Source: Escherichia phage 92CQ. Taken from it: DNA of 64,000 nucleotides. The DNA is taken from sequence record PV682554.1; one strand, given 5' to 3'. Position numbers and translations under genes: made by a program. Position 1 is the stretch's first letter; each line of letters starts with the position of its first letter. Under the pieces are notes generated by a model. The model did not search any database. It saw only the letters and a program-made list of their open reading frames with translations, and was not told the origin of the DNA. Positions 21,691 through 26,799 of the stretch are shown here, piece by piece.

Positions 21691-21960
21691 CTAAAATGAT
21701 TCGTTTGTCTCCATAATATATTGCATTTCCAAATCTTCCATATGTTTCTTAAATTGGTAAACAATTTCCGATGGGGAAATATCTATATCAAAAAGTTCTT
21801 TTGTACCAGAATAAAACCTAATACCATCAACAATAAGACCACCATAATAATCCCAATCACTTTCTCGTGAGAAAGGATTAGGTTCTTCATAATAGTAATC
21901 TACTTCAACAATAATAGGTTCTTTATTATCTTGTTTATACTCAAAATCAAAAGTGTTCAT
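21691..21960 (-). CDS. hypothetical acidic protein
   Basis: 89 aa ORF; start overlaps upstream gene stop. Confidence 0.45.
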   Translation of the reverse strand: MNTFDFEYKQDNKEPIIVEVDYYYEEPNPFSRESDWDYYGGLIVDGIRFYSGTKELFDIDISPSEIVYQFKKHMEDLEMQYIMETNESF

Positions 21961-22904
21961 TATAAATCCTCGATAAGCAGTCTGCGGGTTTCATTTAAAT
22001 CATCAATATTGTAGTTATCTCTTACATACTTAGCAAGAGCTAATCCTTTCTCAATACAAACATCAGGAGATTCGATTAAGTATTCTACAATATCTTTCCA
22101 CTCTTTAACTGAATCAGCAAAGAAGATTAGATCTTTAAATTCTTCAGTATAATAGTTCTCCCGTGGTGAACAAACGAGTGGCAAACCTTTAGCACCAGCT
22201 TCAAGAATTTTTAAATTACTTTTGGCATTATTAAAATGATTATTTACTAACGGAGCTATGGAGATTTGATGACCATCGTATGCTTCCATATAACACTCAT
22301 AAGGACGAATACCTTCATAAACACAATCTGGTTGAATATCTTCTTTAATTTGCAACCATTGAGCACTACTTAACTCTTCGTGATCTCTACGAAATCCACA
22401 TAAAGTTAAATCTTTACCAAAACTAGGAAGAATAGCTAAATCATGTTTATGTGTTTCACTTCCCGCCCAAACTAGTGGACTTTTAGAATAACGGTCTTTC
22501 GTAAGAACAAACTGTCCTTCATCAAAAGGTAGTCCGTTAGGCACAATATGTACATTATCATTGTATTGGCTTAATTCAACCTTTAATGCTGGAGTTGTTG
22601 TAGTTACAAGATCGCTTCTTTCAAGGAACCATTTTAGGTCATCTCGGATTTGATTTTCAAATAATCCCTCAAGCATATGCCCTTCAGGAATAATTAAAGA
22701 ATCATCCAGATCCATTACCAATTTAAACCCAAGTTGTTTAAGAGCCAGGAAACCTGGCTTTCCACGGGTTGGTACTCCATTGAACACAAAAATATTATGC
22801 TTAGGATTAATGGTCAGTTTGCGTTTATATGGCAAAATGATTCTATGAAAATCACATACACTATACTTTTCATTTCCGCGTGTGTCAAGAATAATATTAG
22901 GCAT
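21960..22904 (-). CDS. glycosyltransferase (GT-B-like), paralog 1
   Basis: C-terminal motif SIAPLVNNHFNNAKSNLKILEAGAKGLPLVCS resembles GT4 sugar-nucleotide-binding motif; RBS aaggag. Confidence 0.6.
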   Translation of the reverse strand: MPNIILDTRGNEKYSVCDFHRIILPYKRKLTINPKHNIFVFNGVPTRGKPGFLALKQLGFKLVMDLDDSLIIPEGHMLEGLFENQIRDDLKWFLERSDLVTTTTPALKVELSQYNDNVHIVPNGLPFDEGQFVLTKDRYSKSPLVWAGSETHKHDLAILPSFGKDLTLCGFRRDHEELSSAQWLQIKEDIQPDCVYEGIRPYECYMEAYDGHQISIAPLVNNHFNNAKSNLKILEAGAKGLPLVCSPRENYYTEEFKDLIFFADSVKEWKDIVEYLIESPDVCIEKGLALAKYVRDNYNIDDLNETRRLLIEDL

Positions 22905-22915
22905 ATCGCTCCTTA

Positions 22916-23890
22916 TTAAAGACTTTCAATAACTTGACGACGCAGTTCATTGGCATCTGCAAGATTATAATTAAGACGAACGTGTTCTGCAAGCATCATA
23001 CCACGATCTTCTGTGTATCTAGGGTTTCTCATTAGCTTCACAACTTCATAATGCCAAGATGCTTTAGAGTCTGCATAGATAACAGCCTTTGCATCTACCG
23101 GATTGAAGTACGGCAGCACAGGAGAACAGATAATAGGAAGACCCTTTGCACCTGCTTCCAAAATCTTCAAATTGCTTTTACAGTTGTTGAAGTCATTATC
23201 TACCAGAGGAGCAATTGCAATACTGTGACCGTCATACACAGACATATACTCACCTAAATTTTTAATAGCTGGTTTATACTGTGCATTTGGAATTTTACGT
23301 TTTACTTTAACCCACTCCGCAGTAGTTAGATACTGACTATTATTTCCAACAGGTGCAGAAGGATACACTTCATACCCTGCAATTGTCAATAGTGTATCAT
23401 CAAATGTATTAGCTACAAGAGATAAATCAGGTTCATGGCTTGCTCCTCCAGCCCAAATAATAGGCGTGTCAGAATAACGGTCTTTTGTCAAAGTAAATTG
23501 ACCTTCGTCGTAAGGTAGTGCGTTTCTAATAACGACAACATTACGATTTAAATGACGAATTTTGTAAGCTAGGTATTCTGTTGTTACTGTAACAACATCT
23601 GCTAACTTAACCATCTCTACAATAGTCTTTGAATGATTAGTAAATACGCCAGCCATATAATGTTCAGGATTAAGTGAATAAAAGTCATCTAAATCAACAA
23701 TAATCTTAACACCTTGTGCCTTCAGGCGTTTAACTTCGTCTGCTCCATGAGAATACACTCTATTAAAAACTAAAACGTCTTTCTTAGGTTTAAACGTATT
23801 TCCAGCAAATGGCATTACAATACGATGGTAATCACAACCACTGCCTAACTTATTATCACACTTAAGTACAGGAGTATTAGGATTTACCAT
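22916..23890 (-). CDS. glycosyltransferase (GT-B-like), paralog 2
   Basis: Paralog of 21960-22904 (LTKDRYS..WAG, NNCKSNLKILEAGAKGLPIICS); start set at third Met (MVNPN) because RBS GAGGAGG lies 8 nt upstream; track start was 23929. Confidence 0.6.
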   Translation of the reverse strand: MVNPNTPVLKCDNKLGSGCDYHRIVMPFAGNTFKPKKDVLVFNRVYSHGADEVKRLKAQGVKIIVDLDDFYSLNPEHYMAGVFTNHSKTIVEMVKLADVVTVTTEYLAYKIRHLNRNVVVIRNALPYDEGQFTLTKDRYSDTPIIWAGGASHEPDLSLVANTFDDTLLTIAGYEVYPSAPVGNNSQYLTTAEWVKVKRKIPNAQYKPAIKNLGEYMSVYDGHSIAIAPLVDNDFNNCKSNLKILEAGAKGLPIICSPVLPYFNPVDAKAVIYADSKASWHYEVVKLMRNPRYTEDRGMMLAEHVRLNYNLADANELRRQVIESL

Positions 23891-25531: not shown

Positions 25532-25966
25532 TTAGTTTAAAATTTCTTTTGCAATGGTAGAAGCAAGTTTTCCATCATATTGATTCGGATACTCTGCTTT
25601 AAGGTGTTTCATCATATCTGGCATTTTCTTGCCTGTCAAGGCAAATTCTTCGGCAATAGCTCGAAGATCATCTTCAGATAGCATTTCTGGTAAATATTTC
25701 TCCAGAGTGGTGATATCACGCATAGCTCGCTCACATTTGCTAAGGGAAGCATTAACTTTCTTAAGCGAGTCTAGTTCCTCTTTAGCGTGTGCAATACCAA
25801 TCTTAACAATGTTAATCATAATATCGTCTTCTGATTTGTTTAGATTTGCCTTTTGAGTACGAGCAAGGTCAAACTCACCAATAATATTAGTTAACAAAGC
25901 AAAAGCACCCTTATCGGTTGTACGTGCTAAGATACGATCTGCTTTCATTTGTGTCACAATAGACAT
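25532..25966 (-). CDS. YqeY/GatB-C-terminal-domain-like protein
   Basis: LEKYLPEMLSEDDLRAIAEEF...MPDMMKHLKAEYPNQYDGKLASTIAKEIL aligns by eye with the YqeY family C-terminal half. Confidence 0.6.
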   Translation of the reverse strand: MSIVTQMKADRILARTTDKGAFALLTNIIGEFDLARTQKANLNKSEDDIMINIVKIGIAHAKEELDSLKKVNASLSKCERAMRDITTLEKYLPEMLSEDDLRAIAEEFALTGKKMPDMMKHLKAEYPNQYDGKLASTIAKEILN

Positions 25967-25978
25967 TCTATTCTCCTC

Positions 25979-26551
25979 TTATTTGCTAATGCTTTGAGTC
26001 TTGTTTACAACACGGTTTATTGCCAGTGAAGCCCTAGGCTCCGCAATACCTGTTGCATAGATATAAGGATGACCTCTTGGAGACTCCCTCATACCGAATG
26101 AACCTAATTCTAAACCATATTCATCCTCTACGTCAACCCCAATATTAGTGGGTACTAAATATGTTTTAACTCCATAATAAGTAGAGAAGAAACAGCGCAT
26201 AGCGTTAGCATACTCTTCAATTGTAGCATCAGGGTAGAACTCAATCAACTCCAATTTCAAGAAAATATTAAAATGGGTATCATCTAAATTTTCTTCTGTA
26301 CGGTAACATGGTGTTAGTGCCATATACGGATTACCTGCTGCAAATTCAAAACCATCCTTCTCCATTTGCAGGAAAGATTGTTCTGCACTAGCTACATAGT
26401 ATTTACCGTTAGGATGCCCTAATGGGCGATCCTCTTTATTTTCTGGTAGTGTGTACGTTAGTATATCAGCATCCACGAGATATGGAACTTCTAACATTTG
26501 TGCAAATCGACCATAGTAATCAATAGCTTGAGCTATTACTGCAACATTCAT
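25979..26551 (-). CDS. hypothetical protein; possible class-II aminoacyl-tRNA-synthetase-like catalytic core (tentative)
   Basis: CYRTEENLDDTHFNIFLKLELIEF resembles class II motif 2; ATGIAEPRASLAI weakly resembles motif 3. Confidence 0.35.
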   Translation of the reverse strand: MNVAVIAQAIDYYGRFAQMLEVPYLVDADILTYTLPENKEDRPLGHPNGKYYVASAEQSFLQMEKDGFEFAAGNPYMALTPCYRTEENLDDTHFNIFLKLELIEFYPDATIEEYANAMRCFFSTYYGVKTYLVPTNIGVDVEDEYGLELGSFGMRESPRGHPYIYATGIAEPRASLAINRVVNKTQSISK

Positions 26552-26799
26552 GATCGACCTCCATTGCGGAATGCACGTTTAGTAATGTTTGACATAGTGA
26601 TCAAATCTTGAAGCGTCATATCAGGAAAATGCTGTTCAAGAACACCTTCAACAGCGCCTACAATATCTGATAACTCAATAAGTTGCATCAGCTTGCAGTC
26701 TTGATCAATAGCATCTTGAAGTTCATAAAGCTCTTCTTGAATCTTAGCAACAGAACCATATTCCTCTTTGCTAATCTCCTTCAAATGATACCCTGCCAC
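26548..26799 (-). CDS. MazG-like all-alpha NTP pyrophosphohydrolase
   Basis: EEYGSVAKIQEELYELQDAI...LIELSDIVGAVEGVLEQHF matches the EExxE...E...D helix pair of MazG-like proteins; 83 aa. Confidence 0.55.
   Translation of the reverse strand: MAGYHLKEISKEEYGSVAKIQEELYELQDAIDQDCKLMQLIELSDIVGAVEGVLEQHFPDMTLQDLITMSNITKRAFRNGGRS

Follow-up and report, generated by a model that had tools for sequence, protein, structure and literature searches.

Why does a lytic coliphage carry several glycosyltransferase (GT) genes among its replication genes, and what do the encoded enzymes glycosylate? The question is raised by positions 21,691 to 26,799 of a 64,000-nucleotide stretch of Escherichia phage 92CQ (sequence record PV682554.1; this whole stretch is the window, and all coordinates below refer to it unless another genome is named). 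An initial annotation of this locus described two paralogous GT-B-like enzymes, a two-domain protein with a GT-A DxD domain and a MazG-like nucleoside triphosphate (NTP) pyrophosphatase set between a primase-helicase and an SF1 (superfamily 1) helicase, and proposed DNA base hypermodification as their role, with glycosylation of virion proteins or of the host envelope as the alternative. All four open reading frames (ORFs) are present on the minus strand, and the identities of the flanking genes are borne out by Pfam: the T7-like primase-helicase (19906..21678, minus strand) matches Toprim_2 and DnaB_C, and the UvrD/Rep-type SF1 helicase (26810..28585, minus strand) matches UvrD-helicase (2.6e-18) and UvrD_C. 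Here we propose, at a probability of about 0.45, that the locus is a truncated and rearranged form of the accessory GT module of phi92-like phages (Stephanstirmvirinae), and that this module makes a rhamnose-containing glycan on a non-DNA acceptor. The genes themselves are already known, phi92-type GTs and the MazG-fold protein having been annotated since the phi92 genome paper; the sole new element is a unique 15.9-kb deletion that joins the homolog of phi92 gp194 to the GT-A gene.

The window comes from a phi92-like Escherichia coli myovirus of the genus Justusliebigvirus, about 99% identical to EmilieFrey and PATM. In a megablast search, the region 21600-26900 matches 58 phage records, mostly at 95-99% identity, with vB_Eco_PATM, PD114 and EmilieFrey/Bas61 as the top matches. 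The GT-B1, GT-B2, GT-A and MazG-like genes are orthologs of phi92 gp163, gp164, gp165 and gp197, respectively, with 98-100% protein identity; the phi92 record (NC_023693) annotates the three GTs as a TreT-like GT-B, a GT-B and a ppGalNAcT-like GT-A, and gp197 as having a ‘predicted MAZG-type nucleotide pyrophosphohydrolase like fold’.

The deletion junction lies at 24564..24565. The megablast alignment to every relative ends at 24564, none of the 58 records bridges the break, and from 24565 on the window aligns some 16 kb further along in the same relatives’ genomes. In EmilieFrey (MZ501063) the two halves map to positions 47156 and 63036, and the segment missing from the window measures 15,879 bp (47157..63035; 15,875 bp in PATM) and holds 27 genes. 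Beyond the 58 related phage records, the junction is also absent from IMG/VR viral contigs, JGI metagenome contigs and an exact-protein index, and the exact 337-residue form of the window’s GT-B2 protein was found only in EmilieFrey and JohannJBalmer, both of normal architecture. Apart from this break, EmilieFrey is collinear with the whole window at 93-99% identity, except for small indels in the accessory early region.

As read from the deposited sequence, this deletion is specific to the 92CQ genome and has fused the gp194 homolog in frame to GT-A, yielding a 545-residue chimeric ORF (23877..25514, minus strand) in which the stop codon between the two genes is lost. The N-terminal moiety (24565..25514, minus strand; EmilieFrey 63036-63985) is a complete, 316-residue ortholog of phi92 gp194/bas61_0076, with phrog_15930 spanning residues 1-316 of 316; it matches no Pfam or NCBIfam family, and the label ‘ribonucleotide reductase’ attached to it in RefSeq and PHROG finds no support from either of these collections. 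The C-terminal moiety (23877..24563, minus strand) is a complete, 228-residue ortholog of phi92 gp165/bas61_0048, identified by alignment, by its match to phrog_2456 (2e-79) and by its AlphaFold2 (AF2) model, and its native TTG start codon stands at 24563. Of the two-domain protein described initially, the C-terminal GT-A domain with its FDDD motif is thus real, but the architecture is not native: in 58/58 matching phage records a gap of about 15.9 kb separates the gp165 and gp194 homologs.

On the minus strand, the junction reads CTT GAC TA/T TTG GAA (the slash marking the break), the TAA stop codon of the gp194 homolog having become TAT. In the wild type, CTT GAC TAA ends the gp194 gene, and AAGGAGTTATT TTG GAA AAT separately provides the ribosome-binding site and start of GT-A; upstream of the GT-A TTG, the wild-type AAGGAGTTATT is replaced in the window by CCTTGACTAT. 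With it, GT-A’s own AGGAG ribosome-binding site is gone, so the enzyme can be obtained only as a fusion. The intrinsic terminator that follows gp194, annotated in PATM and visible as a hairpin in the EmilieFrey sequence, is lost as well, and because this native terminator and the GT-A ribosome-binding site have both been removed, the GTs now read as a continuation of the UvrD-gp194 operon.

How the deletion arose, and whether it is natural, can be judged in part from its endpoints. No repeat is common to the two breakpoints (within ±150 bp, the longest shared k-mer measures 9 nt and its copies sit at unrelated offsets), which makes repeat-driven misassembly, assembly collapse or homologous recombination unlikely. 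No microhomology is seen past a possible 2-nt TA, and this candidate was itself rejected, as it would yield four T’s and an out-of-frame product where three T’s are observed. Both endpoints fall no more than 2 nt from gene boundaries, one within a stop codon and the other a single nucleotide ahead of a start codon. The in-frame join may have been selected for because it spares the essential, translationally coupled primase-helicase and polymerase genes downstream from polarity. Alternatively, could the junction stem from faulty assembly or chimeric reads, or from engineering or editing, rather than from a natural deletion in a viable phage? Its uniqueness among the 58 relatives, its absence from two large contig collections and the improbability that random breakpoints would fall this close to gene boundaries and join in frame all favor such an origin, but no repeat longer than 9 nt lies near the breakpoints to mislead an assembler, and a designer would not normally ruin a stop codon and a ribosome-binding site for an untidy fusion. 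Moreover, the rest of the window diverges by 1-7% from every relative in the mosaic pattern typical of an independent isolate, and the in-frame join would be explicable by selection through continued translation into the essential replication genes; on balance we consider an artefactual or engineered junction unlikely.

The 27 missing genes run from bas61_0049 to bas61_0075. By Pfam they include the fourth GT of the cluster (bas61_0049/gp166), a cell-wall hydrolase, an AAA ATPase, NrdG and NrdD, together with a complete stress module of the Ter type (TerD, a vWA-TerF-like protein, TelA and TerC), which is accompanied by a ComF-like phosphoribosyltransferase (PRTase), a HAD hydrolase and a macrodomain protein. 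An expectation that the dTDP-rhamnose genes would sit in this block proved wrong, its content being of the Ter, PRTase, HAD, macrodomain and NrdDG types; in relatives rmlABCD (bas61_0211-0214) lies about 50 kb away, outside the window. The initial count of three GTs is right for this window, against four in the native cluster. Should the phage be viable, neither the complete set of four GTs nor the remaining 26 deleted genes would be required for lytic growth; a real isolate would be a natural mutant that shows some 16 kb to be dispensable and could serve for comparison in the analysis of DNA and virion glycans.

The deletion also bears on what the position of the GT genes can tell us. The placement reported initially, between the primase-helicase and the SF1 helicase and next to the MazG-like gene, holds for this sequence, but it is a by-product of the deletion and differs from all relatives, in which the MazG-like gene lies about 17 kb from the GTs and the MazG-like/SF1-helicase gene group belongs, 16-17 kb away, to a different transcription unit. 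Because it was produced by a genome-specific deletion, the adjacency to MazG and the SF1 helicase carries no functional information, and more generally, apparent domain fusions and gene adjacencies should be compared with the situation in relatives before they are used as clues to function. The other half of the placement is native: the GT cluster is conserved directly upstream of the gp162 homolog, the primase-helicase (its native downstream neighbor, in a synteny kept in distant relatives) and the DNA polymerase. A 52%-identical relative keeps this position within a full wild-type gene order, in a 43%-identical relative the cluster at the same position consists of a sugar epimerase/dehydratase directly beside a GT-A and a GT-B, and in a Klebsiella relative only a gp166-like GT and one GT-B are found there, so that the number of GTs among relatives ranges from 2 to 4.

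What kind of enzymes are these? GT-B1 (21960..22904, minus strand; 314 residues; ortholog of phi92 gp163/bas61_0046) and GT-B2 (22916..23890, minus strand; 324 residues; ortholog of gp164/bas61_0047) are indeed paralogs, with 40% full-length identity and joint membership in phrog_7162 (4e-145 and 6e-149, respectively). GT-B1 passes the gathering cut-off of Glyco_trans_1_2 (PF13524; 26.8 bits against 25), and GT-B2 taken alone scores a sub-threshold 14.9 bits. The GT-B1 protein is 100% identical in KKE7M and EC_OE_11. For GT-B2, a 337-residue version could start at an upstream ATG at 23929, a Shine-Dalgarno sequence preceding both possible starts. The AF2 model of GT-B1 (predicted local distance difference test, pLDDT, 94; predicted template modeling score, pTM, 0.91) shows a compact GT4-like GT-B enzyme with two Rossmann-like domains and an inter-domain cleft; Foldseek matches it at E 1e-9 to 1e-10 to BshA, GlgM, TreT, PglA and MshA, and its best neighbors by template modeling (TM) score are GtfC/Gtf3, with 0.62-0.68 to GtfC. 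GtfC and Gtf3 are extenders of O-glycans on serine-rich adhesins. Of a candidate C-terminal EX7E nucleotide-sugar motif, the family keeps the second Glu without exception (E235, in L-K-I-L-E-A-G-A-K-G-L-P), but eight positions upstream there is no Glu, the invariant residues in that part being K228 and S229.

A bacterial homolog of the GT-B enzymes was also observed in Burkholderia dolosa (JAIMDN010000082.1, 3025-8440), where the gene for a 411-residue protein with 35% identity over the full length follows immediately after an inverse-autotransporter invasin/intimin-like gene and one for a 571-residue protein, a neighborhood that hints at adhesin glycosylation. Phi92-like phages themselves have a lateral tail-fiber protein annotated with intimin-like domains (bas61_0035).

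GT-A is modeled by AF2 (pLDDT 90) as a minimal GT-A fold with a single Rossmann-like alpha/beta/alpha domain. Its FDDD motif (DxD; D64, D65, D66) is invariant in 17 family members down to 35% identity, as are the YG-ED and IHP-D motifs. Foldseek matches include STIV A197, WrtF, TarP, RmlT and chondroitin synthases, and the top matches in BFVD are unnamed proteins. Outside the subfamily, homologs of GT-A occur in 341 mycobacteriophage records, which are its closest phage matches; with the N-terminal GT-A domain of Ramsey gp106 it shares 26% identity over 172 residues (pairwise E 1.6e-11). Against TAGT (PF20691) it scores 22.8-24.1 bits over 62-66 residues of the DxD region only, below the cut-off of 27.5, and comparably weak, sub-threshold matches are obtained to Glycos_transf_2 (GT2) and Glyco_transf_7C. 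PDB searches by sequence (queries GT-A, GT-B1 and the MazG-like protein) and by two family profiles returned chance-level matches only, and none of the GTs matches an NCBIfam family. All GTs are soluble, with no hydrophobic segment in any of them. Taken together, their fold matches comprise enzymes that act on proteins, lipids, teichoic acids, polysaccharides or small molecules, and the acceptor is not identifiable by fold.

In light of these results, we propose that in intact phages the two GT4-like GT-B enzymes, the minimal DxD GT-A and the fourth, small GT would act sequentially in the cytoplasm, drawing on host nucleotide sugars and on dTDP-L-rhamnose made by the phage rmlABCD products, to assemble a short oligosaccharide that includes rhamnose on an acceptor other than DNA. 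The first choice of acceptor would be a structural protein of the virion, after the example of mycobacteriophages and giant viruses, an assignment that we hold only tentatively and that seems possible rather than probable; the second would be a host envelope glycan intermediate. In 92CQ, with one GT lost and one fused, the pathway is probably crippled. Judged by gene content, several GTs, a dedicated sugar pathway and a GT number that varies among relatives, as it does in loci that diversify glycans, are the signature of oligosaccharide assembly, and a non-DNA acceptor is favored because of the homology of GT-A to mycobacteriophage enzymes, the GtfC/Gtf3-like fold, the adhesin-linked homolog, the co-occurrence with rml genes and the solubility of the GTs. 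This co-occurrence is seen in the same taxa: RmlC (at least 60% identity) is found in 131 phage records, GT-B in 127 and GT-A in 126. Nucleotide-sugar enzymes encoded right next to GTs, as in the 43%-identical relative and in the metagenomic phage described below, also speak for glycan building with phage-made sugars. Virion and host-envelope glycosylation had been correctly named as the alternative in the initial annotation. More than 120 sequenced coliphages under development for therapy carry the four-GT and rmlABCD system, and if virions are decorated, as the mycobacteriophage precedent would have it, this bears on antibody recognition and on the pharmacokinetics of these broad-host-range phages.

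A sugar cluster of another make was observed in an unrelated metagenomic phage (ZHEN22-1 scaffold_1508, 8001-15873), where a GT-B homolog near a DnaB helicase and PolA is accompanied by a GT2, two proteins of no assigned function, a second GT-B-like protein, a 136-residue protein, an NAD-epimerase/dehydratase, a radical-SAM/SPASM protein and a DegT aminotransferase. It may be a recurrent theme among phages that elaborate loci for glycan synthesis are placed close to replication genes.

Known systems offer several points of comparison. The closest is the four-GT cluster of Justusliebigvirus and Phapecoctavirus itself (phi92 gp163-gp166, EmilieFrey bas61_0046-0049), whose members are 98-100% identical orthologs in the same gene order and with the same downstream neighbors (gp162, primase-helicase, DNA polymerase); unlike it, the window lacks the gp166 homolog and 26 further genes, has its gp165 ortholog fused to the gp194 ortholog and has its GTs joined to the UvrD-MazG-aminoacyl-tRNA-synthetase (aaRS)-like operon. 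In giant viruses, a virus-encoded rhamnose pathway and several soluble cytoplasmic GTs decorate structural proteins without recourse to the host's secretory apparatus, the PBCV-1 A064R rhamnosyltransferase and the mimivirus fibril glycans being examples, although their hosts are eukaryotic and their donor is UDP-rhamnose rather than the dTDP-rhamnose of phi92-type phages. The virion-glycosylation operons of mycobacteriophages (Che8 gp108-110, Corndog, Myrna) likewise comprise several soluble GTs with no DNA-modification partner genes, and the first GT of many Cluster F right-end operons (Ramsey gp106) is homologous to the window’s GT-A. In two later papers (PMC11256854, PMC12363180, citing Freeman et al. 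2023), the GT operon of Che8 (Cluster F) is reported to glycosylate capsid and tail-tube proteins. Differences remain here too: the experimentally studied Che8 enzymes are not significantly similar to GT-A (E ≥ 0.24), which makes the link indirect, the GT-B paralogs have no mycobacteriophage counterpart, the phage at hand is a lytic myovirus of a Gram-negative host, and virion glycosylation in phi92-type phages is a proposal.

Could the acceptor be the phage DNA, as the initial annotation had proposed from the position of the GTs in the replication module beside a MazG-like gene? In this scenario the GTs would put rhamnose or other sugars on a modified base as protection from restriction and CRISPR, and the MazG-like enzyme would clear canonical dNTPs. 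The same idea was published by Olsen et al. in 2020 as rhamnosylation of hydroxymethylated nucleotides (PMC7552041), and there is some ground for it: weak TAGT matches occur in 15/17 members of the GT-A family (best E 4e-5), GT-A matches the PHROG of the T-even beta-glucosyl-hydroxymethylcytosine (HMC) alpha-glucosyltransferase over 43 residues (E 4e-5), the native cluster borders on the genes for primase-helicase and DNA polymerase, an arrangement reminiscent of T4, where b-gt is found beside gene 42 and not far from the helicase gene 41 and the polymerase gene 43, GT-B fold enzymes occur in both systems, and a Dcm-like C5-cytosine methyltransferase in relatives could supply 5-methylcytosine (5mC) to a TET/JBP route (5mC to 5-hydroxymethyl-C, 5hmC, to glycosyl-5hmC) of the kind in which TAGT proteins, small DxD GT-A enzymes as well, take part. 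The position beside the MazG-like gene is, however, the work of the deletion, that gene natively belonging to another operon about 17 kb off. No hydroxymethylase had been seen in the window initially, and a tblastn search with T4 gp42 (dCMP hydroxymethylase), covering the window and, with near-identical relatives serving as proxy for the genome beyond it, positions 20-146.7 kb of EmilieFrey (127 kb), detected no enzyme of the ThyA family; the thymidylate synthase of the relatives is of the ThyX type (Thy1 4e-9, with a thyX match), and we know of no ThyX-type enzyme that makes hydroxymethyl-pyrimidines. No TET/JBP Pfam match was found in the scanned window proteins or in about 40 EmilieFrey proteins that include all larger hypothetical ones outside the structural module, in a scan confined to larger ORFs beyond the reference's first 20 kb. 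TAGT scores stay under the gathering threshold and are equalled by the generic GT2 and GT7C matches, and similarity of the GT families to T4 a-gt and b-gt is limited to an hhalign probability of at most 1.2% and to short blastp fragments with E of 0.017 or above, the T4 DNA glucosyltransferases being absent also from the best 50 Foldseek matches of GT-B1. An isoelectric-point test for DNA binding (pI 5.1-5.6 for the GTs, 7.7 for GT-B2) was dropped, its T4 controls being ambiguous (b-gt 9.05, a-gt 6.1). Four GTs with a dedicated rhamnose pathway also exceed the one- or two-sugar DNA modifications known to us. Unlike T-even phages, the sister phages are hypersensitive to restriction-modification (RM) systems: from efficiency-of-plating data, the phi92-like phages Bas60-62 of the BASEL collection, and also Vequintavirinae, were described as ‘exceptionally susceptible’ to RM systems of types I, II and III ‘despite a putative dTDP glycosylation machinery’ (Maffei et al. 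2021, PMC8594841), so that the data against DNA glycosylation were in print a year after the idea, which a 2024 paper repeats while noting the RM sensitivity (PMC10844046). DNA base hypermodification is thus not supported, and we regard DNA glycosylation as decidedly unlikely. A variant in which a rhamnose glycan is placed on DNA with neither a ThyA-type hydroxymethylase nor TET/JBP, for example at sparse, sequence-specific sites marked by the Dcm-like methyltransferase, and escapes the six RM systems tested on sister phages, is a long shot; were it true, it would constitute a new DNA-modification chemistry, with the deletion variant as a natural hypomorph.

Two further acceptors compete with a virion protein. 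During infection, the soluble GTs might act on undecaprenyl-diphosphate-linked intermediates, on intermediates of lipopolysaccharide (LPS) or enterobacterial common antigen (ECA), or on a soluble small molecule; they could thereby remodel a receptor (the ECA/NGR glycan or the LPS outer core) against superinfection or against loss of progeny on debris, and the phage Rml enzymes could divert dTDP-4-keto-6-deoxyglucose from ECA synthesis. Adsorption of the group depends on ECA and the LPS core (PMC8594841), the number of GTs differs between E. coli and Klebsiella relatives, the deleted neighbors include envelope-stress (Ter) and cell-wall hydrolase functions, and the fold neighbors include the wall-teichoic-acid enzymes TarP (phage-encoded) and RmlT and the fucosyltransferase WrtF on the GT-A side, and PglA, PimA, BshA, MshA and TreT on the GT-B side. 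This host-envelope acceptor is nonetheless unlikely, for the locus encodes no flippase, polymerase or membrane-anchored component, the GTs have no hydrophobic segment and the nearest phage homologs of GT-A belong to mycobacteriophage operons tied to virion glycosylation; to our knowledge, moreover, surface-glycan modification is mostly a temperate-phage trait, and we know of no strictly lytic coliphage that practices it. Very unlikely, in turn, is the glycosylation of host protein or RNA for takeover, be it EarP-type rhamnosylation of a translation factor, a toxin-like modification or the glycosylation of tRNA nucleosides. The phage makes dTDP-rhamnose (by the rml genes of relatives), the donor used by EarP-type GT-B enzymes, its soluble cytoplasmic GTs are apparently co-transcribed with replication genes and presumably expressed early or middle, and translation-related accessory genes (aaRS-like, YqeY-like, tRNAs) are plentiful, but Pfam, NCBIfam and fold searches return no EarP, Lgt or NleB-type match, and four GTs imply the assembly of an oligosaccharide rather than a single-sugar, toxin-like modification.

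Several points also weigh against a rhamnose glycan on a non-DNA acceptor, and against a virion protein in particular. We found no report of glycosylated phi92-type virions and no demonstrated acceptor for any Stephanstirmvirinae GT. The co-occurrence of rml and GT genes could stem from shared ancestry within one subfamily; the generic fold matches include teichoic-acid, lipid-linked-sugar and small-molecule enzymes (TarP, RmlT, PglA, BshA, TreT); and GT-A reaches only E 0.24-0.34 or worse against Che8 gp108, gp109 and gp110, whose operon provides the precedent. The location in a replication operon, presumably expressed early or middle, would suit an action on DNA no less than one on the virion, a modification that is sparse and sequence-specific would go unnoticed in RM assays, and the TET/JBP scan was not exhaustive. 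Finally, the sequence alone would be as compatible with an assembly or engineered construct as with a deletion in a viable phage.

The putative NTP pyrophosphohydrolase gene (26548..26799, minus strand; 83 residues; the phi92 gp197 ortholog) probably encodes an all-alpha protein of the MazG/HisE-like type. The initial MazG-like assignment gains from an acidic EExxE..D/ExxD motif (E22, E23, E26, D29, E42 and D45) invariant in 14 homologs down to 55% identity, and from the phi92 note cited above, but stays below curated thresholds: the protein scores 15 bits (E=0.034) against a 21.3-bit cut-off for Pfam PRA-PH, 9/14 family members match PRA-PH weakly (best E 0.0017) and 2/14 match MazG (0.064), and it has no PDB match by sequence or profile and no NCBIfam match. 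From its motif, a MazG/HisE-like NTP pyrophosphohydrolase is plausible. Upstream of the chimera follow a YqeY-like protein (25532-25966, minus strand; phi92 gp195 ortholog; Pfam YqeY 4.6e-7) and a 190-residue class-II aaRS-like core (25979-26551, minus strand; phi92 gp196 ortholog, identified from record annotations), the pair corresponding to phrog_1460 and phrog_4806. The aaRS-like gene forms an operon with the YqeY/GatB-like and MazG-like genes and is without a match in Pfam and NCBIfam; neither it nor the YqeY-like gene is part of the GT module, the deletion having brought both near it. Small class-II aaRS-like core proteins of about 176-190 residues are annotated three times in EmilieFrey (bas61_0078, 0187, 0198), a further aaRS-like ORF is cut at the right end of the window (~63750-64000), and relatives of this phage carry tRNA genes.

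On the other side of the GTs, a small acidic protein (21691..21960, minus strand; 89 residues, pI 4.1), recognized as an ORF and by PHROG search as the ortholog of phi92 gp162, holds a constant position between GT-B and the primase-helicase across the relatives compared and may be a member of the replication module rather than of the GT module; the phi92 record notes its similarity to PVP-SE1 gp008. The UvrD-type helicase gene is 2775 nt long in phi92 (25212-27986 of NC_023693, ‘2 discontinuous domains’) against about 1740-1776 nt here and in EmilieFrey, and thus appears to contain in phi92 an insertion of about 1 kb, perhaps an intein or a mobile element. A promoter and terminator consensus scan of 16.5-30.5 kb gave counts not above shuffled expectation (55 against 47.9 promoters, 9 against 8.2 terminators), and operons were not defined from it.

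Elsewhere in the window, a second and small difference in gene content was observed at 16780-16801, where the window lacks about 515 bp of EmilieFrey (38878-39392), which there make up most of bas61_0041, a hypothetical gene immediately upstream of the DNA polymerase gene. A segment of about 815 bp at the switch to divergent transcription (33652-34466, the turning point of GC skew) is inverted relative to EmilieFrey, but this was ruled out as a second unique rearrangement, its orientation being collinear with many relatives (cardinal, KKP_3264, UAB_1, phiWec187) and both orientations occurring in the genus; the sole inverted repeat found nearby, a weak 17-nt pair (34456-34472 and 34730-34746), does not bracket the segment. 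Accessory genes connected with NAD and ADP-ribose were also noted. By offset mapping from EmilieFrey, the window carries a NADAR (YbiA-like) protein beside a CapR-homology/T5orf172 protein at ~36.9-38.5 kb (bas61_0106-0107) and a sirtuin-family protein at ~62.9-63.7 kb (bas61_0186), and relatives add the macrodomain protein of the deleted block and a Nampt/PRPP-synthetase pair, which together suggest an NAD+ and ADP-ribosylation counter-defense repertoire.

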